The notes beneath the pieces are model-generated. The model ran no database searches. It was not told the origin of the DNA and was given only the letters and a program-made list of their open reading frames with translations. A stretch of 64,000 bases of DNA from Candidatus Magasanikiibacteriota bacterium. Lineage in GTDB: Bacteria; Patescibacteriota; Patescibacteriia; Magasanikbacterales; GWA2-37-8. Position numbers and translations under genes: made by a program. Position 1 is the stretch's first letter. Each line of letters opens with the position of its first letter. Below are positions 747 to 61,089 of the stretch, one piece after another. The stretch covers positions 6,447 to 70,446 of the forward strand of contig JBAYGI010000001.1 in assembly GCA_041666745.1 (NCBI GenBank), read 5' to 3'.

Positions 747-780
747 TATATTTCTGGTAATTTATTGTTGCGCGCGTGGT
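747..780. repeat. left inverted repeat bracketing the 781-1263 ORF
   Basis: Reverse complement of 747-780 is gaccacgcgcgcaacaataaattaccagaaatat. The partner 1308-1337 is gaccacgcaataataaattaccagaaatat: an 8-mer plus a 19-mer match with a short indel. Confidence 0.7.
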
Positions 781-1263
781 CTATTTTTGTTCTTGTTTAA
801 GAAGTATGTTTGTAACTTGTTCATGCCAGTCTGGCCCCATCACGGCACTTTCCAGCTGTTCCCTTTCTCTGTTTGCCATACTGAAGCTGAACGAAACCGA
901 CTCTACACTCAACATGACATCTAAAGCAGAAAGTTCAGTATTTCCGAATTCACGCAGAACACTGATGCCTTCCTTCTGAACACGTTGATTTAGAGATGCG
1001 ATTGCGTCTACTCCCCAGTCTGATTTTATGGCATCAGGCCATGTAGCGATTTTTTCTCGATTTTTTGGTTGATTAAATCCTGCTGAAGCCATAATGAGTG
1101 CTTTCTCTAACAGCGGTTTATACTGCCCATTTTTTTCAGCCATGTCAAGCAATTGATCAAGAGTATAGCGAGTGTTTTCTAAAGCTTCATGTCTCTCATT
1201 TTCAGATTTTCTCCTTGCCGTCTCTTCTGGAGAAGGCGGTTGATATCGTGGATAGTCTCCCAT
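781..1263 (-). CDS. hypothetical protein (160 aa) inside an IR-bracketed segment
   Basis: Complete ORF, no recognisable motif. GC is slightly above the genome background. A TATAAAT-like element lies between the ORF start and the right IR on the reverse strand. Confidence 0.5.
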   Translation of the reverse strand: MGDYPRYQPPSPEETARRKSENERHEALENTRYTLDQLLDMAEKNGQYKPLLEKALIMASAGFNQPKNREKIATWPDAIKSDWGVDAIASLNQRVQKEGISVLREFGNTELSALDVMLSVESVSFSFSMANREREQLESAVMGPDWHEQVTNILLKQEQK

Positions 1264-1307: not shown

Positions 1308-1337
1308 GACCACGCAATAATAAATTACCAGAAATAT
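1308..1337. repeat. right inverted repeat bracketing the 781-1263 ORF
   Basis: Partner of 747-780, described there. Confidence 0.7.
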
Positions 1338-2303: not shown

Positions 2304-3619
2304 ATACAAAAATTGCTCAACAATTAAAAAATTTGCCTGATGCGCCTGGGGTGTATCTGTTTTTTAATTCCAAAAAGGAGCTGATATATGTCGGCAAGGC
2401 GTCGTCTTTGAAAAACCGCGTGAGAGGATATTTTAAGGAGCTGGATTCCCGCCTGCGCGGGAATGACAAGAGTGGATTGTCACGTCCGATAGAGGAAATG
2501 ATTCACGAAGTGATGAACTTCAAAACGGAAGAAACCGATTCGGCTTTGGAGGCGGCGATTTTGGAAGGGAAGTATATTAAGGAAAATAGGCCGAAATATA
2601 ATATTGATTGGCGGGATGATAAGAGTTGGAATTATATTGTTATTACAAAGGATAAGTTTCCACGAGTTTTGACTATTCGTCAACATGAGTTAAAAAATGG
2701 AGGAGGGATTCCTCCGCTCGCTACGCTCGGTCGGAATGACAAACGACTTCGCGGGAATGACAAATATAAGTATGTGTTTGGGCCGTATCCGGGGTTGAAC
2801 ACCAAAGAAGCCTTGCGTTTATTGCGTAAAATTTTTCTTTTTTCTACTTGTGAACCAAATGCCAAGCGTCCGTGTTTTTCTTATCAGATCGGTCAATGTT
2901 TGGGAGTGTGTACGGGAGAAATTTCACCCAAAGATTATTCGGCAAAAGTAATTCGACCACTTTGTTTATTTTTGGGTGGAAAGAAAAAAATATTAATGAA
3001 GAAAACAGAAAAAGAAATGAACATGGCCGCTAAATTGGAAAATTTTGAAGAGGCGAGCAGATTGAGAAACCAACTTCGTCATTTGCAAAAAATTCAAGAC
3101 GTGGCTTTATTGAATGATAGTTTTTTGAGAGATATTACGAAAAGGAATTCCTTGGCCGGTCGGAATGACATGAGGATCGAGGGTTATGATATCTCCAATC
3201 TAGGTAGTAGCAATAAAGTGGGTAGTATGGTAGTATTTGATGAGGTTGGGCCGGTAAAAAATCAATATCGTAAATTCAAAATCAAGACAGTGGTGGGGCA
3301 GAGTGATGTGGATTGTTTGGCGGAAGTGTTGGAGCGTCGGATAAAACATGCCGAATGGATATTGCCAAATATTTTTTTAATTGACGGTGGTTTGCCTCAA
3401 GTAAATAAAACTAAATCGGTTTTGCGAAGGGCTGGGATAAATACACCGATAGTCGGCATTGCCAAAGGGGCAAAGCGTAAACGCAATGATTTTTTTGTAG
3501 TAACTGAATCTTTGGAGATAAAAAACTGGATAAAAGAAAATAAAGAGCTGTTGATCAGAGTCCGCGACGAAGCGCATCGATTTGCTATCAAGTTTAATCG
3601 AGTACAGAGAAAAATATGA
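2300..3619 (+). CDS. uvrC: excinuclease ABC subunit C-like (UvrC lacking the C-terminal HhH2 domain)
   Basis: GIY-YIG N-terminus (GVYLFFNSKKELIYVGKASSLKNRVRGYF). Cys-rich region CFSYQIGQCLGVCTG. UVR motif EEASRLRNQLRHLQ. RNaseH-like endonuclease domain (RIEGYDISNLG...IAKGAKRKRND...RDEAHRFAI). Ends with TGA. Hosts three in-frame palindromic-repeat insertions. Confidence 0.8.
   Translation: MNTKIAQQLKNLPDAPGVYLFFNSKKELIYVGKASSLKNRVRGYFKELDSRLRGNDKSGLSRPIEEMIHEVMNFKTEETDSALEAAILEGKYIKENRPKYNIDWRDDKSWNYIVITKDKFPRVLTIRQHELKNGGGIPPLATLGRNDKRLRGNDKYKYVFGPYPGLNTKEALRLLRKIFLFSTCEPNAKRPCFSYQIGQCLGVCTGEISPKDYSAKVIRPLCLFLGGKKKILMKKTEKEMNMAAKLENFEEASRLRNQLRHLQKIQDVALLNDSFLRDITKRNSLAGRNDMRIEGYDISNLGSSNKVGSMVVFDEVGPVKNQYRKFKIKTVVGQSDVDCLAEVLERRIKHAEWILPNIFLIDGGLPQVNKTKSVLRRAGINTPIVGIAKGAKRKRNDFFVVTESLEIKNWIKENKELLIRVRDEAHRFAIKFNRVQRKI
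2443..2469. repeat. TGTCATTCC/GGAATC palindromic element, in-frame in uvrC
   Basis: ggattcccgcctgcgcgggaatgacaa encodes DSRLRGNDK. Confidence 0.7.
2705..2763. repeat. palindromic element, 1.5 tandem copies, in-frame in uvrC
   Basis: gggattcctccgctcgctacgctcggtcggaatgaca followed by cgacttcgcgggaatgacaa encodes GIPPLATLGRNDKRLRGNDK. Its reverse complement closely matches the intergenic copy at 7445-7505. Confidence 0.7.
3144..3170. repeat. palindromic element, in-frame in uvrC
   Basis: ggaattccttggccggtcggaatgaca encodes LAGRNDM. Confidence 0.6.
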
Positions 3620-3666
3620 AATTAACCCAAAAGATGGGTAAATAAGCGCTAAATAGGGGGGTAGGC

Positions 3667-4026
3667 TTGACATTTTTTCATTTTTTGTTTATTATATTGC
3701 TGTTTATGTTAGCCAAAAATAATCGAGGCGAATCTTGGTTGGAAGCATTAAAATTCATTGGTCATTGTCCGATTTGCAATCAGCGTTATGAAGAAAATCA
3801 GGCCAAGCTTTTTGCCAAACATGATTCAGCCAATTTGATTCATATTACTTGTGGCAAATGCGCCGGTAATTTTATTGCCATGATAGTGATGATGGGGCAA
3901 GGATTGAGTTCGGTTGGTATGGTGACAGATCTGACGTTTGAGGATGCTAAACAACTTTATAAAACAGCGCCACTGACAGTAGATGAAGTTATCAGTGGTT
4001 ATCAATTTTTTCAAAAAAATTATTAA
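3667..4026 (+). CDS. hypothetical small protein with N-terminal TM segment and CxxC...CxxC zinc-ribbon
   Basis: TTG start at 3667 follows a GGGGGG RBS; the alternative ATG is at 3706. CPICNQ ... CGKCAG motif. Confidence 0.45.
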   Translation: MTFFHFLFIILLFMLAKNNRGESWLEALKFIGHCPICNQRYEENQAKLFAKHDSANLIHITCGKCAGNFIAMIVMMGQGLSSVGMVTDLTFEDAKQLYKTAPLTVDEVISGYQFFQKNY

Positions 4027-4048: not shown

Positions 4049-4759
4049 ATGACATATTTGTTGCAAGCGGTGACCCGCACTATCAAAGGAGCAGACTCTC
4101 GTGAACAGGGGAAATTACCGGCCGTGACTTACGGAGCGGGAAATGAAACTATTTCCTTGGATTTGAATTATGCTGATTTCCTCAAACTCTACAAACAAGC
4201 TGGTGATTCCAGTTTGATTGATTTGGAAATTGACGGAAAAAATGTTGGAAAAGTATTGGTGCACGAAGTACAATATAATCCGGTAAAAGATACTCCAACT
4301 CATGTGGATTTGCGTCGTATTGATATGAACAAAGTAATGCAAGCTCCAGTGGTGTTGCATTTCATTGGCGAAGCTCCAGCAGTAAAATCTATGGGTGGTA
4401 CTTTGGTACAAAACATCTCTCAGGTTACTGTAGAATGTTTGCCAAAAGATTTGGTATCCGCTCTTGAAATTGATTTATCTATTTTGAAGTCTTTTGAAGA
4501 AGTGGTCAAAGTGAAAGATTTGGTTTTACCAGCCGGTTTGAAAATCGTGGCTCCTCAAGGCGATGTGTTGGTGACCAAAGTTGTCGCCTCAATGACTGAA
4601 GAAGAAATCAAAGCCATGGAAGAAGCTGGCAAAAATATGGATGTCAGTAAGATCGAATCTGCTGCCAAGAAGAAAGAAGAAGAGGCAGTGGAGGGTGAAG
4701 CTCCAGCCGCTGGCGCTGAAAAGAAGGTTGAAGAAAAGAAACCAGCTGAAAAGAAATAA
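4049..4759 (+). CDS. rplY: 50S ribosomal protein L25 (Ctc form) with Lys/Glu-rich C-terminal tail
   Basis: LPAVTYGAGNETISLDLNYADF...VLVHEVQYNPVKDTPTHVDLRRI matches the L25/Ctc beta-barrel. Confidence 0.85.
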   Translation: MTYLLQAVTRTIKGADSREQGKLPAVTYGAGNETISLDLNYADFLKLYKQAGDSSLIDLEIDGKNVGKVLVHEVQYNPVKDTPTHVDLRRIDMNKVMQAPVVLHFIGEAPAVKSMGGTLVQNISQVTVECLPKDLVSALEIDLSILKSFEEVVKVKDLVLPAGLKIVAPQGDVLVTKVVASMTEEEIKAMEEAGKNMDVSKIESAAKKKEEEAVEGEAPAAGAEKKVEEKKPAEKK

Positions 4760-26108: not shown

Positions 26109-27238
26109 ATTTCTTCAGTAATTATTTTTTCGGCATCCATCAACGTGGTGTTTTCTATAGAAATTTTTGATTGCTCGATGGTACCGCTAGGATTGTGTGG
26201 TTTGAATAATAGGCGAGTGTCATGTCCTTTTTTGGAATGTAAAATACCATTGACAATTTTTTGTCCGGAAGAATTTTCTGTTTCGTAAAGTATTAATATT
26301 AAATCGATTTCCGGTGAATTTCCGATTAATTCAGAAATAATATCTCGCAAACTTTCTTCGGTAGTACCACAGTTGATAAAATCATCTTTGGTAATAGTTG
26401 TCCAGGCGAAATGTTTTTCCGGATCAATTTTTAATTTAGACAAAGCTGTTCCCCAAAGTTTTAGTGTGGACAAACTGCGGGTGCGATATAAATTTTGAAT
26501 AATTTTTTCTCGATTGGCGCCGTGATTGATCAACTCGCTCGCGGCTTGTAAAGTGAACGGAGTAACGTTGGTGGTTTTAAAACTATGAGTGGCCGAAATC
26601 ATGCCGGTCAAAATTGCGGTAGCGCTGTTTTCTTCCGAATATCTTTCCCAAAGTTGTTTGCTTAGTTTGTAAATTATTTCACCAATGGAAGTAGCGTTGA
26701 GATCCACATAATTTATTTGTCCATAGCGTTCATTGGTGGCGTGAAAATCAATATTAATAATATTAGTGCGATAAAATAAATCGGTGTTGTTCAAAAATAT
26801 TGATCCCAAACTTTCCAAGTCAGATGTTCCGAGAGTGATGATCAGATCATACTTGTAAGCGGATTGAGCGGTGCGTAATTCGTCCTTGGTGAGCAAACCA
26901 TTTTTGGGAGTTAAATAAATAGAGAGCCAATTGTCTTTGACATCATAGCTTAGACTTTCTATTTTGGCGTGAGATACGTCAACTTTGATTATTAATTTTT
27001 GTAAATGTTCCAGTTCAGATTTGATGTTTTTTAGCCCAGTCAAAAAGCTAAGGTTTTTTGCCGGTAAAAAATTTGGACAAGCAATATCTACAGATTTGTG
27101 ACTTTTTTCCAAAAAAGAAAACAAAGCCAAAGCAGAGGCAGTGGCATCAGTGTTTTCGTGGTTGTTGAAAACGATCAGTACATGTCGACTATTTTCAATT
27201 TCCTGTTTGATTTGTTGGATTTCGTTTAACATAGGCAA
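26090..27238 (-). CDS. DHH/DHHA1-family phosphoesterase (NrnA-like) with degenerate catalytic motifs
   Basis: Aligns to NrnA architecture. The DHH motif reads DFH (NIDFHATNERYG) and GGGH reads KKGH. Start is TTG at 27238 or ATG at 27232. Confidence 0.65.
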   Translation of the reverse strand: MPMLNEIQQIKQEIENSRHVLIVFNNHENTDATASALALFSFLEKSHKSVDIACPNFLPAKNLSFLTGLKNIKSELEHLQKLIIKVDVSHAKIESLSYDVKDNWLSIYLTPKNGLLTKDELRTAQSAYKYDLIITLGTSDLESLGSIFLNNTDLFYRTNIINIDFHATNERYGQINYVDLNATSIGEIIYKLSKQLWERYSEENSATAILTGMISATHSFKTTNVTPFTLQAASELINHGANREKIIQNLYRTRSLSTLKLWGTALSKLKIDPEKHFAWTTITKDDFINCGTTEESLRDIISELIGNSPEIDLILILYETENSSGQKIVNGILHSKKGHDTRLLFKPHNPSGTIEQSKISIENTTLMDAEKIITEEIKKSLN

Positions 27239-27399
27239 TGGGTGATTTTACCAGTAAAATGGAGGGCTGTCAAGGGAGTTGGGCAGATTTTTGTTAATAA
27301 AATTTGACATAAATAACGTGGTAGTTTAGCTATTGAGAGGGGCCCCTCTGTCGACTAGGTTAACAACAAGTTTGTTAGTCGTGCTCACAGGAGGATTCC

Positions 27400-27981
27400 A
27401 TGAATTCAATGAAAGTACGTACGTGGGGAACGCGAGGTTCGGTGTCTGTCTCTGGTCCGGACAAGGTCCGGTATGGTGGCAACACCACTTGTATTGAGGT
27501 CATCTCGGACTGCATCCAGAAGGGTAACGGTTTGGTGGTGGACGGTGGAACGGGCTTTGTTCCGTGCACCGATTCGCTGTTGGGCCGTGGAATCATGAAG
27601 GTCAACGTCCTGATGACACACGAGCACCATGATCACACCATGGGTATCCCATTGTCCGGCCATCCGTTCATCGACGGCGCTCACACCAGTGTGTGGGGGC
27701 CACACGAGCACGGGGTCGGGCCGTTGGAGATGCTCGAGTACCTGTTCCGTCCTCCAATGTTCCCGGTCGATTTCCGGACACTGAAGCATCGGTTTTCAAC
27801 CCACAATCTGGCGGTGATCGGCACGCAGGTGTTGCTCATTCACCCGATCGGTGGGTTCCAGCTTCATCAGGCGAGCGTGTTCAAACAGGCTGAAGCCACA
27901 GGGCGTCAGCTCACATTCGCGGGTGGCAAGAAGTTCATTTTTTGGGAGTTTTTTTGTTCTTGCAATTTTATCTATATTTAG
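27400..27981 (+). pseudogene. high-GC MBL-fold (RNase Z/ElaC-like) hydrolase gene fragment, 3'-truncated
   Basis: HxHxDH (THEHHDH). LVVDGGTG. AGGAGG RBS 7 nt before the ATG. GC drops back to background near 27940, and the remaining ORF tail (KKFIFWEFFCSCNFIYI) is AT-rich read-through. Confidence 0.6.
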
Positions 27982-28050
27982 GTAAAATATTAAGGCGAAT
28001 GGAAAATATAATTTTTAAACAAAAATGCTATTTTAAGCTAAATTTTAGAT

Positions 28051-30681
28051 ATGAAAGAATTACCAAAAGCCTACGAACCGCAAAAATACGAGGATTCTAT
28101 CTATAAACGCTGGGAAGAAAGTGGATATTTTAATCCGGATAATTTGTCTGGTGAACCGTTTTCTGTTTTGTTTCCACCCCCAAATGTTACCGGTGTTTTA
28201 CATCTTGGGCATGCGTTGGAAAATTCTTTGATGGATGCCATGATTCGCTATCAGCGTATGAAAGGTAAAAAAACTTTGTTGTTACCTGGTACTGATCATG
28301 CGGCAGTGGCCACGCAAGCAAAAGTAGAAAAAGATTTGATTAAACAGGGGCACATTCATCCACGCGAAGAATACGGTCGTGAAAAGTTGTTGGAAATTAT
28401 TCGCGACTATGCGGAAAAATCCAAAAGCACTATTTTAAATCAAATTAAAAAAATGGGAACCAGTTGTGATTGGTCTCGTTTGGCTTATACTTTTGATGAC
28501 CAGCGCAGTGTGGCGGTAAATACGGTTTTTAAAAAAATGTATGATGATGGTTTGATTTATCGTGGCTATCGTGTGGTCAATTGGTCGGTAAAGGGGCAAT
28601 CTACTTGTTCTGATGATGAGCTGGTGCATATTGAGCGTGATGCCAAAATGTATACTTTTAAATATTCAAAAGATTTTCCATTAACAATTTCTTCGACTCG
28701 TCCGGAAACAAAACTGGGTGATACAGCAGTGGCGGTCAATCCAAATGATGAACGTTATAAAAAATATATTGGTCAAACTTTTGTGGTAGATGTAGGTGCA
28801 GAAAAACTACTGAACATAAAAATCATTGCTGATGATGGTGTGGATATGGAGTTTGGTACAGGCGCTTTGGGAGTAACGCCGGCACACAGCGCGGTTGATT
28901 ATGAAATGTATATTAAACAAAAAACTCAAGGTAGTCCGATAGATTTAATTCCAGTAATTGGGATGGATGGAAAAATGTTGCCTACAGCCGGTAAAAAATA
29001 CGTCGGTTTGAAAACTGTGGAAGCTCGTGAAAAATTTGTAGAGTGGTTAAAAGAAAATGATTTGCTGATCAAGGAAGAAGATATAAAACAAAATGTTGGT
29101 ACGTCTGATCGTTTTGGTGATGTGGTTGAGGCTCTGCCAATGACTCAGTGGTTTGTCGATGTTAATAAAATTATTTCCGGTAAAAATAAAAGTCTGAAAG
29201 ATTTAATGAAAGAGGCGGTGACCATCGGTCATAGTGGTGATAAAGATAAAAAAATAAAAATTACGCCGGAACGTTTTGAAAAAGTTTATTTAAATTGGAT
29301 AGAAAATTTGCGTGACTGGTGTATTTCTCGCCAAATTTGGTGGGGTCATCGTATTCCGGTATGGTATAAAGGCGAAGAAGTTTTTTGTGGTTTAACCGCG
29401 CCGACTGATGGTGATTGGAAACAAGATGAAGATACTTTGGACACCTGGTTTAGCTCTGGTTTGTGGACATTTTCTACTTTGGGTTGGCCTAATGAGAAAA
29501 AAGATTTAGGTGTTTTTCATCCCTCCAGCTGGATGCAGATGGGTAATGAGATTATTTTCTTTTGGATGGCTAGAATGATTTTGATGACGACTTATGTCAT
29601 GGATACAATTCCGTTTAAAGAAGTTTATATTCATGGCATGTTGCGCGATGAACATGGCAAGAAATTTTCCAAATCAGCGGACAATGGTATTGACCCTCTG
29701 GATGCGGTCAAAGATTATGGTTGTGATGCTTTGCGTTTGAGTTTGTTGTCGGGTATTTCACCAGGGAATGACTCGTCTTTTTATAAAGAAAAAATAGAAG
29801 GATCACGCAATTTTGTAAATAAACTTTGGAATATTTCACGGTACGTTTTCTTGCAGATTGAAAAAGCAGATAAAAATATTTTGAAACCTCAAGCCAAAAC
29901 TTTGGCCGATCGTTGGATTCTTAGTCGCTTGGAAACAGTAAAATTAGATGTTGAAAAATTGTTGGATCGTTCGGATTTTTCATTGGCAGTTGAAAATTTA
30001 CGTACTTTTACTTGGACCGAATTTGCCGATTGGTATGTAGAGATTGCTAAAATTGAGAACGATAAGCAAGAAATTTTGAATTATCTGCTCAATACAATTT
30101 TGAAACTTTGGCATCCGTTCATACCGTTTGTGACTGAACAAATTTGGAGTGAAATTTACGATGAAAAAGAAATGTTGATGGTAGAAAAATGGCCAACGGC
30201 TGTCATTCCGAGCGAGACCGAGGAATCCCTTGACACATTTGAAATCATCAAAAATATTATTACCGGTATTCGCGCTTTGCGTGCCGAAAATAAGATTGAA
30301 CCGGCCAAAAAATTGGACGCGACGATCGGTGCTGACGAAAAAATTAATTTGATTAAAGAAAATTCGGATATTATCAAAATCTTGGCTCGTTTGGAAAATT
30401 TGGAAATTTTAGAAAAAGCTAAAAAATCCAAAACCGCCGTTGGGTTTGTAGAGGGAATAGTCGAAGTGTTTGTTGAATTAGCCGGAGTGATAGATTTGGA
30501 CAAAGAAAAAGAACGTTTGCAAAAAGAATTTGAAACGTTGACTAAATTTATCAATGGTCTGGAAAATAAATTGGCTAATGAGGAATTTGTCCAAAACGCA
30601 CCAGCGGTAGTGGTGGCCAAAGAAAAACAAAAATTGCAAGAGGCGCAAGAAAAATTGGATAAAATTGAAGCTCAACTTTAA
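28051..30681 (+). CDS. valS: valyl-tRNA synthetase
   Basis: HIGH (PNVTGVLHLGHAL), KMSKS (KFSKSADNG), and a C-terminal coiled coil. Contains an in-frame palindromic repeat at 30201-30229. Confidence 0.95.
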   Translation: MKELPKAYEPQKYEDSIYKRWEESGYFNPDNLSGEPFSVLFPPPNVTGVLHLGHALENSLMDAMIRYQRMKGKKTLLLPGTDHAAVATQAKVEKDLIKQGHIHPREEYGREKLLEIIRDYAEKSKSTILNQIKKMGTSCDWSRLAYTFDDQRSVAVNTVFKKMYDDGLIYRGYRVVNWSVKGQSTCSDDELVHIERDAKMYTFKYSKDFPLTISSTRPETKLGDTAVAVNPNDERYKKYIGQTFVVDVGAEKLLNIKIIADDGVDMEFGTGALGVTPAHSAVDYEMYIKQKTQGSPIDLIPVIGMDGKMLPTAGKKYVGLKTVEAREKFVEWLKENDLLIKEEDIKQNVGTSDRFGDVVEALPMTQWFVDVNKIISGKNKSLKDLMKEAVTIGHSGDKDKKIKITPERFEKVYLNWIENLRDWCISRQIWWGHRIPVWYKGEEVFCGLTAPTDGDWKQDEDTLDTWFSSGLWTFSTLGWPNEKKDLGVFHPSSWMQMGNEIIFFWMARMILMTTYVMDTIPFKEVYIHGMLRDEHGKKFSKSADNGIDPLDAVKDYGCDALRLSLLSGISPGNDSSFYKEKIEGSRNFVNKLWNISRYVFLQIEKADKNILKPQAKTLADRWILSRLETVKLDVEKLLDRSDFSLAVENLRTFTWTEFADWYVEIAKIENDKQEILNYLLNTILKLWHPFIPFVTEQIWSEIYDEKEMLMVEKWPTAVIPSETEESLDTFEIIKNIITGIRALRAENKIEPAKKLDATIGADEKINLIKENSDIIKILARLENLEILEKAKKSKTAVGFVEGIVEVFVELAGVIDLDKEKERLQKEFETLTKFINGLENKLANEEFVQNAPAVVVAKEKQKLQEAQEKLDKIEAQL
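30201..30229. repeat. palindromic element, in-frame in valS
   Basis: tgtcattccgagcgagaccgaggaatccc encodes VIPSETEES. About 93% identical to the intergenic copy at 60401-60429. Confidence 0.75.
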
Positions 30682-34730: not shown

Positions 34731-34814
34731 CACATCTTTACAGCATCTACATACAGGTATAGTATAATTTCTAGGCTTGTTTTGCCGTCTCTAAGGACGG
34801 AAAAGAGAGGGATC

Positions 34815-36032
34815 ATGCGAATTGAGCGACCTATCCGACCAAATTGGCCGGAGCGCAAATGGCCGCGTGTGGCCTTTATTGCACACGCGCTTTTGGACGG
34901 GTATCGCTCAACCGACTTGATCAGTCGACGGTTGGACGAACTCGGGCAAAAGTGGCCCCAGGATGGCGAGGATCCCGGGTTTATCAACTGGTTCTCCTTT
35001 CCTGTCACTCCGGTGGATGGTCAGGGACAGTCGGTGTGGGTTGATTTCTATATCATCCCGGTTCTGGCTGGACAATTTCTGGCTGCCTGCAAGAGCGGGC
35101 AGGCATACGACTGGGCGGAAGCTGTCGCACTCGCCGCGATCGCTGAAGCCAAGGCCGACGGTGTTCACATTACCGTTGGTTGGGGTGCGTTGACGAAAGT
35201 CGCGACTACTCACGGCGCTCGTTTTTTGGAGCGTAATGCGTGGGTGAAGTCCGACGATATGGTTTCGACTACCCATGGTGATGCCGGCACGGCCGCCTTG
35301 GTTCTCGAGACTATCCGTCGAGCTGGTTTCAAGCGAGGTTTTCGCGTTGCGGTGATTGGTGCCAACGGCGCCATCGGTGACGCGATTTCACGTTTGCTTC
35401 CTTCGCTTTCTCCTGAGAGCATCTTGCTCGTGGGGAAGGGCGGAGAGGTGAATGCCTCCCGCTTGAACGAATTGCGCGCGCGGGTGTTTGGTGGTGGTGA
35501 TCGAGTCGCCATTCACCAAGACAAATCGAGCGCGTGTCATGATCACCGGAGCGATTTGGTGATCATCGCGACTACCGGTATGGATATCGCTCCGAGCGAA
35601 ATCCCGTTGGGCGCACTCGTGCTCGACATGACAACTCCGTCTGCGTGCCACGCCAATAGCGAATGGCAGAATAACCGGTTGGTTCTAGCTTCCGGGTGTG
35701 GTCGGTTCGCCGATCGTGCCGTGAAGGAATCTTTCGGTCAATTCGGCGGCGAGTTGCTCGCGGACGTTGGAGCTGGCGGTCACCATGTGTTGTGGGGGTG
35801 CGCCGGCGAGACCATTACGCGAGCGGTCGCTGAATGGCACGGACACGTGGCTGGCACCAATATCCCTCTCGGGGATATCCAGTGGTGCGACAGTCATTTT
35901 CCGGAGCTGGGTTTCGCCCCCCAGTTGCCAGTCTCATTCGGGAGGAGTCTCGACTGGTCGGACGTGCACGCTTTCGTCGAGCGTTCACAAAAAAGAATTT
36001 CGGTGCAGGCGTCGCAACACCTTCACCAGTAA
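34815..36032 (+). CDS. high-GC Rossmann-fold NAD(P)-binding oxidoreductase-like protein (foreign composition)
   Basis: GC is far above the flanks. VAVIGANGAIGDAISRLL is a GxGxxG-type dinucleotide-binding motif. A TATAAT-like element is at about 34768 and a GAGAGGG RBS precedes ATG 34815; the ORF-track start at 34782 is also possible. Family is unassigned. Confidence 0.6.
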   Translation: MRIERPIRPNWPERKWPRVAFIAHALLDGYRSTDLISRRLDELGQKWPQDGEDPGFINWFSFPVTPVDGQGQSVWVDFYIIPVLAGQFLAACKSGQAYDWAEAVALAAIAEAKADGVHITVGWGALTKVATTHGARFLERNAWVKSDDMVSTTHGDAGTAALVLETIRRAGFKRGFRVAVIGANGAIGDAISRLLPSLSPESILLVGKGGEVNASRLNELRARVFGGGDRVAIHQDKSSACHDHRSDLVIIATTGMDIAPSEIPLGALVLDMTTPSACHANSEWQNNRLVLASGCGRFADRAVKESFGQFGGELLADVGAGGHHVLWGCAGETITRAVAEWHGHVAGTNIPLGDIQWCDSHFPELGFAPQLPVSFGRSLDWSDVHAFVERSQKRISVQASQHLHQ

Positions 36033-36078
36033 CACCAAGCTGTCTTTTGACGGCGGGAGGTTCAAAATGCCAATAGGC

Positions 36079-36117
36079 ACACCCCGGGTTCGCAAGATCC
36101 GGGGTGTCTGCTTTTTA
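36079..36117 (+). terminator. GC-rich rho-independent terminator of the high-GC island
   Basis: acaccccgg/ccggggtgt stem followed by ctgcttttt. Confidence 0.75.
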
Positions 36118-39134: not shown

Positions 39135-39217
39135 GCCCAGGTGGCGAAATGGTAGACGCACTACCTTGAGGTGGTAGCGGCCGCAAGGCCATGGAAGTTC
39201 AACTCTTCTCCTGGGCA
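39135..39217 (+). tRNA. tRNA-Leu (anticodon GAG)
   Basis: Acceptor stem GCCCAGG/CCTGGGC with discriminator A. Anticodon arm CTACC-TTGAGGT-GGTAG. Long variable arm (GGCCGCAAGGCC). T-arm GGAAGTTCAACTCTTCC. 83 nt, and CCA is not encoded. Confidence 0.85.
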
Positions 39218-39231
39218 CTTAAAAATAATAT

Positions 39232-50559: not shown

Positions 50560-50755
50560 ACCCCCCTTGACAACCCAAGGGGGTTTTGGTATAGTGATTG
50601 CACCATAGACAGCAGGTGGCGAAAGCCTTAATTACCTGCCGAGGTACAAAAACTAATACTGGATTCCCACTTTCGTGGGAATGACAGTGTAGGAAGTCGA
50701 TTTGTACTGTATTATACGTCTGTGGAAACACAGATTTTTTTGTTAAAAAATCGTT
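50560..50755 (+). promoter_or_regulatory. ribosomal protein L10 leader (rplJL autoregulatory 5' UTR)
   Basis: Structured region directly upstream of rplJ (ccccccttgacaacccaagggggtt hairpin and others). It contains one palindromic-repeat copy. Confidence 0.5.
50660..50685. repeat. palindromic element within the L10 leader
   Basis: ggattcccactttcgtgggaatgaca. Confidence 0.65.
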
Positions 50756-58084: not shown

Positions 58085-59092
58085 ATGTTTATCAAGAAAA
58101 TCGGCATTGATTTGGGGACGACGAATGTTTTGGTGTATGTACCCAAAAAAGGGATTGTTTTGAACGAACCAAGTGTCGTGGCAATATCCAAAGCCGATGG
58201 TAAAGTGTTGGCGGTTGGCTTGGAAGCCAAAGATATGTTGGGGCGAACACCGGATACGATTGTCGCCGAACGTCCGCTCAAAGATGGAGTGATTGCCAAC
58301 TACCAAATAACCGAGGCGATGTTGCGTTATTTTATAAACAAAGCTTTGGGTGGGGCGCGTTTGTTTAGACCGGAGGTAATGGTGGCGGTGCCGGCGGGAA
58401 TTACTTCGACCGAAAGACGCGCGGTGATTGATGCGACTATCGCGGCCGGCGCGCGGGCGGCTTATATTATCAAAGAACCGATTGTCGCGGCGATTGGCGC
58501 GGATATTCCGATTGGCGCGGCCTCTGGACATATGATTATCGATATTGGCGGGGGCACGGCTGAAATCGCGGTGATTTCTTTGGGCGGAATTGTTTCGAGT
58601 GGATCAGCTCGGGTTGGTGGTACAAAATTTGATCGAGCGATTGTGGAACATATTCGTCAAAAATATAATTTGGCGGTTGGTGAACGCACTTCTGAAGATA
58701 TTAAAATTACCGTTGGGTCGGCGATGTTTATGGACAAGCCTTTGACTATGGAAGTAAAAGGACGTGATATGATCAATGGACTGCCTCGTATTATTACTGT
58801 TTCTTCTGATGATACTACCGAAGCTTTGCAACACGAGCTAGGTCTTTTGATTGACGCTATCAAACAAGTGCTTTTTGATACTCCGCCGGAATTGTCGGCC
58901 GATGTGATGGATAAAGGAATAATAATGTCGGGCGGATCTTCGTTGCTGCGCAATTTGGATGAGTTGGTGGCTCAAGCGACTGGGGTGCCGACTTATTTGG
59001 CTGAGGAGCCTTTGTTGTGTGTGGTGAAGGGGACGGGGATTGCGTTGGATAATTTGGATAGTTATAAGCGTAGTATTTTGGCTACTAAATAA
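58085..59092 (+). CDS. mreB: rod-shape-determining protein MreB
   Basis: IGIDLGTTNVLVYV, DIGGGTAEIAV and the rest of the actin fold. Confidence 0.95.
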   Translation: MFIKKIGIDLGTTNVLVYVPKKGIVLNEPSVVAISKADGKVLAVGLEAKDMLGRTPDTIVAERPLKDGVIANYQITEAMLRYFINKALGGARLFRPEVMVAVPAGITSTERRAVIDATIAAGARAAYIIKEPIVAAIGADIPIGAASGHMIIDIGGGTAEIAVISLGGIVSSGSARVGGTKFDRAIVEHIRQKYNLAVGERTSEDIKITVGSAMFMDKPLTMEVKGRDMINGLPRIITVSSDDTTEALQHELGLLIDAIKQVLFDTPPELSADVMDKGIIMSGGSSLLRNLDELVAQATGVPTYLAEEPLLCVVKGTGIALDNLDSYKRSILATK

Positions 59093-60546: not shown

Positions 60547-61089
60547 TCATTCGCACCTCCGAAAGAACTTTTTGCCGAGTTTCTGCGCCAGATCCGCCAT
60601 GCGGTTGGTGCGTTCGACATCGGCTGTTGTTTGAGAGCGGGCGACGCGCAACTGTGCGATTCGCTCGCGGATTTCTGCGGTGGTCGCGGATGTGTCGGTT
60701 AGGGTAATGTAGCCCAACATGTGGGCTGCATGAATCCCTACCTCGCCACCGTGGCCGTGTATATCCGACCAGATTTTCAACGCCATTTTCTGGGCGCTGA
60801 TATCTCCGGTTATCCGCCACCATATGAACAGTAGGTTGGCCAACATGTTTTTGGCCTCACCATCCTTGAGCGTTGCTGTCACGCTCATTTCCTCCAGAAA
60901 TTTTAAGCCTCCGTACCGCTCCATGACCGTCATGGCGGCTTTTTCGCGTCCGTCGCTGATGAGGTTCGTCACCATGTTTTGGACGAACTCCAGCTTCGCA
61001 AGGTCTGCGATCATATTGCCCTCCGCAAGCTGTAAATGCACAGCACTGGCAAAACAGTTGATATTATCAGGTCTGTTAAGTTTTGTCAA
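60547..61089 (-). CDS. GC-elevated hypothetical protein (180 aa; foreign composition)
   Basis: GC is clearly above the flanks. TTG start at 61089 or ATG at 61014. No recognisable motif (HGHGGEVGIHAAHMLGY). Confidence 0.45.
   Translation of the reverse strand: MTKLNRPDNINCFASAVHLQLAEGNMIADLAKLEFVQNMVTNLISDGREKAAMTVMERYGGLKFLEEMSVTATLKDGEAKNMLANLLFIWWRITGDISAQKMALKIWSDIHGHGGEVGIHAAHMLGYITLTDTSATTAEIRERIAQLRVARSQTTADVERTNRMADLAQKLGKKFFRRCE

Follow-up and report, generated by a model that had tools for sequence, protein, structure and literature searches.

The window analysed here is a stretch of 64,000 nucleotides of contig JBAYGI010000001.1 (GenBank assembly GCA_041666745.1), from a member of Candidatus Magasanikiibacteriota, and the element in question is a GC-rich open reading frame (ORF) located between a DHH gene and valS. 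This ORF is annotated at NCBI as "hypothetical protein WCT11_00190" of a Ca. Magasanikbacteria metagenome-assembled genome (MAG), located on a contig of 222 kb, and it encodes the first part of a protein of the metallo-β-lactamase (MBL) fold. The locus was compared with four relatives that carry the complete gene (L001–L003, short Logan contigs from other samples, and L004, a contig of a Ca. Magasanikbacteria MAG from Kiruna), with two JGI contigs of one same organism in which the site is empty (L084 and L085, found by scanning a metagenome collection for the conserved valS promoter), and with L087, an independent Logan assembly contig of the single run SRR6484324. The ligand motifs are numbered according to P0002, a full-length orthologue of 322 amino acids (aa). 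The features of the locus are as follows.

27245..27273, minus strand: promoter-like site of the divergent DHH gene, TTGACA-17 nt-TAAAAT with a TG before it, 11 of 12 consensus matches.
Ending at 27276: conserved CTGTCAAGGG, left flank of the cassette, kept in L002–L004 and in the empty site of L085.
27277..27959, plus strand: remnant of the cassette (the whole MBL transcription unit), bounded by sequences that are adjacent in the empty site of L085.
27304..27327, plus strand: promoter-like stretch of the cassette, TTGACA at 27304..27309 and TG-n-TAGTTT at 27319..27327, placed by alignment, of putative function.
27334..27386, plus strand: orphaned 5' arm, with the palindrome AGAGGGGCCCCTCT, CUGUC and GTTAGTCGTGCT, invariant in the window and in L002–L004.
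27389..27394, plus strand: Shine-Dalgarno sequence AGGAGG, separated by 5 nt from the start codon (ATG, 27400), kept in the orthologues.
27400..27981, plus strand: ORF call of 193 aa, with the GC island (27418..27927) inside it.
27400..27936, plus strand: N-terminal 179 codons of the MBL-fold gene, with GTRGS, GGNTTC, HEHHDH and H145 present.
27936..27940: deletion junction, AAGTTC followed directly by ATTTTTTGGGAG, from the alignment with L001 and L004 and reproduced in the independent assembly.
27937..27981, plus strand: AT-rich, non-homologous read-through tail IFWEFFCSCNFIYI and stop, 14 codons, crossing the terminator remnant into the valS promoter.
27943..27955, plus strand: right arm TGGGAG of the terminator with its T-run; the left arm CTCCCA is deleted and the hairpin can no longer form.
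27960..27988, plus strand: valS promoter-like site TTGCAA-17 nt-TAAAAT, right flank of the cassette, kept in L001, L003, L004 and L085.

The GC block was delimited by maximum-likelihood two-state segmentation of 26800..28500, and it has 58.6% GC against 36.4% in the surrounding 1.7 kb; the mean of the window is 39.1% (standard deviation 6.4 points in 150-nt windows). The GC content at third codon positions (GC3) is 0.67–0.70 in the ORF, compared with a mean of 0.38 (standard deviation 0.08) for the 58 window ORFs of at least 100 aa. A preliminary description of the locus had pointed to the jump in GC, to codon statistics as a further check of it, to the AGGAGG ribosome-binding site and to a 3'-truncated gene that ends by AT-rich read-through, and all these points were borne out. 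Others had to be corrected in part. The island is smaller than the 27240–27981 given there, since 27240..27400 is a leader with ~40% GC that lies outside it; the 14-bp palindrome of the leader is perfect, but its coordinates were one base off; the TTGACA of a promoter-like stretch is present, but a consensus scan gave no plus-strand promoter at 27304..27327; and the product does have an MBL fold, but the likeness to RNase Z and PhnP ascribed to it is found at the level of the fold only.

The similarity of the ORF to an MBL-fold family of ~320 aa covers residues 1–179 only and ends at ...GGKKF, nucleotide 27936, and the last 14 codons are not homologous. The start codon of the orthologues aligns with the second ATG of the ORF, at 27409, and not with that at 27400. 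Within its part, the fragment retains 21 of 21 family-invariant residues, including HxHxDH and H145. The DHE, GHG and THHDP motifs, which hold the remaining metal ligands (D214/H215, H255 and H277-H278-D279), are missing, as they lie beyond residue 179 and are deleted in the window. The product would hold only the first sheet (the first 55%) of the fold, and the ORF alone gives no Pfam family match. Because half of the fold and three ligand motifs are gone, the predicted product cannot be an active enzyme.

Complete orthologues are found at this same locus in L001–L004, always between DHH and valS. They encode 322 aa, with 70–76% aa identity, and the genes have 57–61% GC in flanks of 35–38%. 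In L004 the gene order is that of the window (gpmI, DHH on the minus strand, MBL, valS), with synteny over 10 kb and flanking proteins 84–89% identical to those of the window. Moreover, the leader with its palindrome and the downstream valS promoter are common to the window and the relatives. Relative to L001 and L004, ~510 bp are absent from the window. The junction fuses codon 176 (P0002 numbering) to the loop and right arm of an intrinsic terminator, which in the relatives reads CTCCCA-loop-TGGGAG-T7. Lost with the deletion are 146 codons (177–322, P0002 numbering) and their stop codon, a CUGUCAG...CUGACAG hairpin of the 3' untranslated region (UTR), a 3' arm that carries a second copy of AGGGGCCCCTCT (the second GGGGCCCC copy), and the terminator's left arm. 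In L004 the intact terminator lies at 4600..4619 and the 3' UTR folds there with z values of −3.8 and −2.7; the consensus scan found no terminator at the window locus. The junction shows a microhomology of 1–2 nt at most. A repeat-mediated deletion was considered and discarded, as the TCCC repeat does not match the junction.

The promoter-like stretch of the cassette has also changed, since the spacer between TTGACA and TAGTTT is 12 nt long in the window and 16 nt in L002–L004 (a 4-nt deletion), and this promoter may be weakened by the shortened spacer. In the surviving half of the gene, dN to the orthologues is 0.17–0.19, not above that among the intact genes, and dN/dS is ~0.19; of the 39 positions with a conservation of at least 90%, a single one deviates in the window copy, as many as in intact orthologues. 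By these two measures no sign of decay was found in the remaining half, and for this reason we infer that the deletion is recent. It would have arisen almost without microhomology and left a catalytically dead ORF of 193 aa that ends by read-through, and transcription of the cassette probably runs on into valS after the loss of the terminator.

Two other explanations of the truncated ORF were considered. An assembly chimera, or a foreign fragment private to this genome, would account for the sharpness of both GC boundaries and for the incomplete ORF, and short contigs are all that is known of the closest intact relatives. This possibility, which the preliminary description had raised together with a non-native origin of the sequence, is however hardly credible. 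The segment 25900..28497 of the window is 100% identical in the independent single-run assembly L087, across both boundaries, and the exact 193-aa product with its flanks is present in the NCBI MAG, in an ENA assembly and in the Logan assembly. Four other samples, the Kiruna MAG among them, have this GC-rich gene within the same AT-rich flanks and with the same leader and valS promoter, and the right GC boundary is explained base for base by the deletion relative to the orthologues. The abrupt stop of the GC signal, which had been read as the edge of an inserted fragment, is thus the end point of the deletion, and a gene that is complete, has the same leader and is equally GC-rich between DHH and valS of related genomes does not fit a non-native fragment. 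The other explanation, that the 193-aa product is a functional short protein under selection (for instance a regulatory or binding half-domain) and not a pseudogene, agrees with the intact Shine-Dalgarno sequence and start codon, with the retention of all invariant N-terminal residues and with the low dN/dS. Nevertheless, we consider it improbable. The second β-sheet of the MBL sandwich is gone with the three ligand motifs, the 14 codons of the tail come from unrelated intergenic sequence, the unit is left with a shortened promoter spacer and without its terminator, and one relative lacks the whole gene. Furthermore, pairwise dN/dS over a long divergence is blind to recent relaxation, and no other member of 170–200 aa with the same end point was seen, a few short matches being left unexamined.

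The extent of the unit to which the remnant belonged is given by the comparison between occupied and empty sites. The intact cassette measures 1195 bp in L004 (3435..4629), promoter and terminator included. In L084 and L085, the cassette is replaced by 10 bp (TCTTGTCAAC), and DHH and valS are direct neighbours; their gpmI, DHH and valS products are 84–90% identical to those of the window. The relationships among the flanking genes are not uniform. The valS products of L004 and L085 share 94% aa identity and are each 84–85% identical to that of the window; for gpmI, the window is 89–90% identical to L004 and L085, and those two are 86.5% identical to each other. This suggests that the gpmI–DHH–valS region is a recombination mosaic among these Magasanikbacteria, and in L085 a loss of the cassette is more parsimonious than its never having been gained. 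In another MAG of the Magasanikbacteria type (L014, JAUSEN010000009.1, 6001..6744) only residues 74–322 are present, with 66% GC, which is an apparent independent 5' truncation. Judging from the empty sites of L084 and L085 and from the truncated copy of L014, the MBL gene is dispensable. Some neighbouring differences were recorded as well. Upstream of residues 74–322, L014 carries unrelated GC-rich sequence. In L085, an extra gene of 345 aa with ~26% GC lies between gpmI and DHH (2743..3780), absent from the window and from L004, and a second, diverged gpmI paralogue is located upstream in L004 (9..638) and in L085 (2..1147); the gene content around the DHH–valS locus is fluid.

To which protein family the complete gene belongs was examined with P0002. 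Its AlphaFold 2 model (pLDDT 93.7, pTM 0.92) is an αβ/βα MBL sandwich, and Foldseek matched it with a probability of 1.00 to many MBL structures at 12–17% identity, the top ones being the ELAC homologue BA1088 (1zkp), RNase Z (1y44), human ELAC1 (3zwf), YhfI (6kns), a PhnP-family diphosphatase (6b9v) and Apyc1 (7u2s), with PqqB and PDE1 also among the matches. Membership of the MBL-fold superfamily is indicated by Pfam PF12706 (Lactamase_B_2; 31.0 bits, cut-off 27). The specific families were not reached: RNase Z gave 40.9 bits with TIGR02651 (cut-off 292.95) and 40.8 with NF000801 (cut-off 252), PhnP 19 bits with TIGR03307 (cut-off 272; P0031), and hydroxyacylglutathione hydrolase (GloB) 18.6 bits with TIGR03413 (cut-off 200.8). 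The weak profile matches of the family are to RNase Z and to a cyclic-nucleotide phosphodiesterase family, and a PDB profile match to RNase Z had E=2e-8 over partial stretches. The family shares with RNase Z/ELAC1, YhfI/BA1088, PhnP and Apyc1 the MBL sandwich, HxHxDH, a later His, and Asp-His and His-His-Asp motifs; unlike the RNase Z/PhnP group, it has its own N-terminal signature GTRGS...GGNTTC, a length of ~320 aa and the low identity given above. On the basis of these profiles and of the model, it is best placed on the phosphodiesterase/nuclease side of the MBL superfamily, as a branch not yet characterised, and the intact enzyme is probably a phosphodiesterase or a nuclease.

Relatives of this gene are widespread, with at least 478 stretches encoding one in the GTDB species-representative genomes, from the candidate phyla radiation (CPR, Patescibacteria) and from other bacteria. 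A survey of 80 loci from GTDB representative genomes, Patescibacteria and non-CPR, showed that the gene is richer in GC than its flanks in every Patescibacteria locus, by 0.5–25.5 points and mostly by 5–20, with an excess near zero in Gracilibacteria. In most non-CPR loci (Myxococcota, Armatimonadota, Bacillota, Cloacimonadota and others) gene and flanks differ by less than 5 points either way, and the GC of the gene tracks that of the genome from 33% to 72%. Most of the excess is found at third codon positions (GC3 z up to 12.9). The best-fitting island comprises the gene with ~60 bp upstream and ~86 bp downstream in L004, L012, L031 and L053, and comes close to this extent in L005, L025, L055 and L056. 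In a neighbour-joining (NJ) tree, CPR and non-CPR sequences are interleaved and Magasanikbacteria are polyphyletic, the window clade grouping with Kaiserbacteria and Paceibacterota genes; this tree carries no support values. Within the window clade, dS is ~0.9 (near saturation) and GC3 is still 0.68–0.77 in five orthologues; the terminal-branch changes, polarised by parsimony, number 88 from GC to AT and 49 from AT to GC.

As gene exchange among Patescibacteria is documented (PMC12455944), the foreign composition, the scrambled phylogeny, the presence or absence between close relatives and the drift towards AT are best read as the trace of a family that moves horizontally, mostly within the CPR, and that was acquired before the lineages of the window and L004 split. 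The gene would be ameliorating slowly towards AT. The horizontal acquisition that had been proposed for the locus holds in this sense, since the family is compositionally foreign and transfer-prone in the CPR, but not as the insertion of a fragment into this genome. In homology searches, the nearest homologues of the ORF are found in Patescibacteria. In this genome, the gene is neither a recent insertion nor an assembly artefact. The case resembles the horizontally acquired and later pseudogenised islets of a single gene, with an anomaly confined to one gene, presence or absence between close relatives, an incongruent gene tree, GC-to-AT drift and partial deletions. It differs from them in having no mobility genes, tRNA, att site or boundary direct repeats, and in that one and the same gene family shows the anomaly repeatedly throughout a superphylum. 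It should be mentioned that six loci of the survey (L005, L006, L010, L012, L031 and L037; TPA_asm) are labelled "uncultured Gammaproteobacteria" and group with Patescibacteria in the tree. Five of them have AT-rich flanks, GC excess and, where tested, the 5'/3' arms described below; L010 is unlike those, with a flank of 64% GC, an excess of +3.6 and an inverted-repeat (IR) z of −0.1. These labels look unreliable.

The second property of the unit concerns its ends. The palindrome AGAGGGGCCCCTCT lies at 27336..27349. Its core GGGGCCCC alone is unremarkable in 64 kb, as at least one copy appeared in 31 of 100 shuffles, and the significance of the palindrome comes from its conservation in the orthologues. 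The GGGGCCCC/AGGGGCCCCTCT motif has a single site in the window, with none at the second GC island described below, so that its use as a general island-boundary motif was ruled out. The palindrome is no isolated feature, but belongs to a conserved 5'–3' complementarity, of which it forms one arm; the other arm has been deleted in the window. In L003 and L004, the 5' arm pairs with the 3' UTR (~4540..4592 in L004), and the fold with the ORF excised has −68 to −71 kcal/mol. In the window clade, 5' UGAGAGGGGCCCCU-CUGUC pairs with 3' GACAG-CA-AGGGGCCCCUCUCA, and further inner helices follow; for the arms of these orthologues the duplex z is −7.3 and the Smith-Waterman z is 3.9–5.8. The palindrome would thus be the outer helix of the pairing of this clade, which happens to be self-complementary.

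The same arrangement was observed by eye in ~20 Patescibacteria copies, where leader and 3' UTR are complementary in two to four colinear segments. The complementarity spans ~40–55 nt of each and brackets the ORF. The sequences of the arms are unrelated between lineages and complementary within each, as in the following examples, also assigned by eye.

L036 and L037: 5' arm GGGGAUCGAUCAUUUAA, 3' arm UAAAUUAAUGAUUGAUCCCC.
L053 and L056: 5' arm GGUGCGACUCG, 3' arm CGAGUAGCGCACC.
L005 and L016: 5' arm (G)UGAGAGGGG, 3' arm in the loop CCCCUCUCA of a conserved 3' hairpin.

An alignment by sequence of the concatenated UTRs of 21 loci (MAFFT with RNAalifold) gave 0 pairs, as the arms are not alignable, and for this reason alignment-free tests and sister pairs were used. 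In the first test, the 85 nt upstream of the gene were aligned locally with the reverse complement of the 85 nt downstream and compared with shuffles. A z above 3 was obtained in 15 of 24 CPR loci (12 of the 20 firmly labelled) and in 0 of 25 non-CPR loci (Mann-Whitney p=1.4e-6). Controls in direct, reversed and complemented orientation stayed at the level of the shuffles, and 227 neighbouring ORFs in the same CPR loci had a median z of 0 and a maximum of 3.4; the window itself, with its 3' arm deleted, has a z of 0.7. In the second test, RNAduplex energies compared with dinucleotide shuffles gave z values between −2.3 and −7.3 for 18 of the 23 CPR loci and values of about 0 for most of the non-CPR ones, and cognate 5'/3' pairs outscored non-cognate ones. 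Finally, three sister pairs were compared, with 30–39 predicted pairs each, nearly all long-range. They showed 2, 6 and 3 compensatory double changes (11 in total) and 0 broken pairs, and on sliding the arms as a control the paired fraction fell from 100% to 34–45%.

In 12 of 19 loci with consensus-predicted promoters, a distance of 0–8 nt separates the best −10 hexamer from the beginning of the 5' arm, and the 3' arm ends 1–7 nt before the stem of the predicted terminator in 6 of 11 loci. An Rfam 15 search returned nothing at the window locus at gathering score, and for the cassettes of L004 and L037 it returned chance-level matches only (E of 0.005 or more, well below gathering scores). Pairing of 5' and 3' ends around an MBL gene is absent from Rfam and appears to be undescribed in the literature searched. 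Two short motifs were also observed around the gene. Most Patescibacteria copies have the motif (Y)RUAAGnCG in the leader, 10–15 nt before the Shine-Dalgarno sequence, and in the window it is represented by GTTAGTCG at 27374..27381; GTTAGTCGTGCT of the 5' arm is the version of this conserved GUAAGnCG leader motif in the window clade. In addition, UAACCCA is frequent at the stop codon of Patescibacteria copies.

We infer that the pairing acts in the mRNA, because the arms are located at the predicted ends of the transcript, because promoter and terminator lie outside the arms and inside the indel, and because complementarity is kept without conservation of sequence. As the 5' arm begins approximately at the predicted start of transcription and its partner ends at the foot of the terminator, the mRNA would close into a panhandle by pairing of its two ends, which would protect or regulate the transcript. 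The intact unit would consist, in this order, of its own promoter, a leader of ~65 nt, the 322-aa gene with 57–61% GC, a structured 3' UTR and an intrinsic terminator. The panhandle might stabilise or insulate the transcript in any genomic context, or shield the mRNA from the RNase that it may encode. We see an even chance that one MBL gene travels in this way as a self-contained, GC-rich unit whose mRNA is clamped end to end by a covarying duplex of 40–55 bp between the first nucleotides of the leader and the last ones before the terminator, accompanied by the conserved GUAAGnCG leader motif; this would be a "panhandle mRNA" architecture across the phylum.

Alternatively, the inverted repeats may act in DNA, as terminal repeats of a passenger cassette mobilised in trans (similar to mobile insertion cassettes, MIC, or to miniature inverted-repeat transposable elements, MITE), as recombination sites or as operators; an example would be a dimeric protein that binds GGGGCCCC-centred sites on either side of the gene. 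The cassette is indeed compositionally foreign, patchy and variably present among relatives, its repeats flank the ORF closely, neither a wobble signature nor a strand asymmetry marks the sense RNA, and the palindrome is invariant in five sequences amid varying surroundings, as expected of a protein site. However, the arms are unrelated between lineages and yet complementary, with compensatory changes, which indicates that the pairing itself and not a recognised sequence is conserved. They lie 62 bp and 37 bp inside the empty-site indel, with promoter and terminator outside them and at a fixed short distance from −10 boxes and terminators. By eye, no consistent target-site duplications were seen at the ends of the arms, no transposase or integrase is found nearby, GGGGCCCC occurs nowhere else in the window or in L004, and 2.9 million viral contigs (IMG/VR) gave 1 match only, a single match on which a phage-borne origin was likewise set aside. 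The unit thus differs from insertion sequences, MITEs and mobile insertion cassettes, as its arms are not at its ends, no target duplications were seen and MAFFT gave no family-wide arm sequence that a transposase could recognise. On balance, we regard an action in DNA as unlikely, though as a serious rival. A comparable weight falls on a different reading of the composition, according to which the gene is native everywhere and its high GC is kept by selection on the mRNA, for stability or for protection from a ribonuclease, possibly its own product. It agrees with an excess that is positive in every Patescibacteria locus, including those of GC-richer genomes, that lies largely at third codon positions, that co-occurs with the end pairing, and that persists as high GC3 in five orthologues despite the dS of ~0.9. 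Against it, GC-to-AT changes are ~1.8 times as many as AT-to-GC changes on the terminal branches, by which the gene is not at equilibrium; Gracilibacteria and most non-CPR homologues lack the excess; the gene tree is incongruent with taxonomy; and other GC-rich ORFs (34782..36032 and 60547..61089 in the window, and others in other CPR loci) fit a general influx of GC-richer genes. Selection for GC is therefore also doubtful as the cause.

Taking all this together, we consider it probable that the region of the window is the decaying remnant of an accessory unit, of a family that is GC-rich and mobile and whose ends pair. Several observations weigh against this explanation or parts of it. In the proposed duplexes, the mismatched positions comprise 31 G·U and 59 A·C, and a second count gave 12 and 12, without enrichment of wobble pairs, which if anything speaks slightly against the sense strand; sense and antisense strands fold equally well; and the leader alone is no more stable than its shuffles (z of about 0), which argues also against a riboswitch or thermosensor. 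Between 6 and 9 CPR loci are without significant complementarity, and the structures in which pairs were counted were derived from the same sequences. Regarding transfer, the interleaving in the NJ tree is without support values, and the excess of GC-to-AT changes depends on polarisation by parsimony, a method prone to count too many changes from common to rare states. The loss in L085 rests on parsimony and on an 8-nt possible remnant, and the three flanking genes conflict. Finally, the comparison was one of assemblies, and a minority full-length allele may be present in the population.

Pairing between the ends of one bacterial mRNA has precedents. In icaR of Staphylococcus aureus, the 3' UTR of the monocistronic mRNA contains a stretch complementary to its own 5' UTR (PMC3868564), and a 5'–3' UTR pairing within one mRNA is summarised for hbs of Bacillus subtilis (Braun et al. 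2017) in a review (PMC7821165). In both cases the pairing controls translation or the access of RNases (PMC3868564; PMC7821165). The known 5'–3' UTR pairings are of 7–14 nt, species-specific and not conserved among orthologues (PMC7821165). The MBL orthologues and most Patescibacteria copies share with icaR and hbs a 5'/3' UTR complementarity beyond chance. Unlike these, the pairing of the MBL unit involves 40–55 nt, extends approximately from the predicted first nucleotide of the transcript to the foot of the terminator and covaries across many Patescibacteria classes. The mechanism of icaR, an anti-Shine-Dalgarno sequence in the 3' UTR, is unsupported for the MBL unit: of 25 predicted folds, 11 show the Shine-Dalgarno sequence in a helix with the 3' UTR, a frequency not above that obtained after shuffling of the 3' UTRs (p=0.35). 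Another comparison is the fold-back inhibition of hok-type mRNAs, in which the 5' end of a type I toxin mRNA pairs with its 3' end and forms a compact, stable, closed transcript. These mRNAs are of ~400 nt, encode small toxins and have an antisense RNA partner. The MBL mRNA would be similar in the pairing of its extreme 5' end with the 3' end, and it differs in an ORF of ~1 kb that encodes an enzyme and in that no antisense partner is evident.

The pseudogene of the window is in itself ordinary. Its recognition removes a suspected misassembly and turns a "hypothetical protein" into a recent deletion pseudogene, which matters for the curation of MAGs and for metabolic calls. What appears to be new, and seemingly undescribed, is a CPR-specific, GC-rich unit of a single gene with covarying complementary UTR arms. 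Nearly all the Patescibacteria copies examined are compositionally foreign, and about two-thirds are bracketed by arms that are lineage-specific and mutually complementary. To our knowledge, bacteria offer very few cases of conserved long-range 5'–3' pairing around an ORF of ~1 kb. Should the pairing act in RNA, the unit would provide a tractable model for the control of mRNA lifetime in ultra-small, RNase-poor symbionts, and a portable expression module; if it acts in DNA, it would represent an unrecognised way of moving single genes among CPR genomes. The window contains what remains once the 3' half of the cassette is deleted, with an orphaned 5' arm, and because the 3' arm is gone the question of its function is moot here.

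Other regions of the window are worth describing. The second GC island (34784..36111; 57.9% GC against 34% in the flanks) contains a complete ORF of 416 aa (34782..36032, plus strand; GC3 0.62), weakly similar to the N-terminal part of PigE and to acyl-ACP reductase. A terminator-like hairpin lies at ~36078..36115, and the island is without the GGGGCCCC motif or a flanking inverted repeat; the 416-aa gene and the MBL gene co-occurred in none of the 80 loci. The third GC-rich ORF (60547..61089, minus strand) encodes 180 aa, with 53% GC, GC3 of 0.65 and no Pfam match, and a GC bump at 58085..59092 corresponds to mreB (58248..59049). An ORF of 160 aa (781..1263, minus strand), without Pfam match and not GC-rich, lies within a near-perfect inverted repeat of ~30 nt, ATATTTCTGGTAATTTATTATTGCGTGGTC / GACCACGCGCGCAACAATAAATTACCAGAAATAT, with arms at ~1308..1337 and 748..781. 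Its IR z of 9.3 is the strongest in the window, and it may represent either another case of end pairing around a gene or a repeat that acts at the DNA level. The sole Rfam and ARAGORN matches in the window are a ribosomal protein L10 leader (RF00557, 68.6 bits) at 50585..50749 and a tRNA-Leu(GAG) at 39135..39218.

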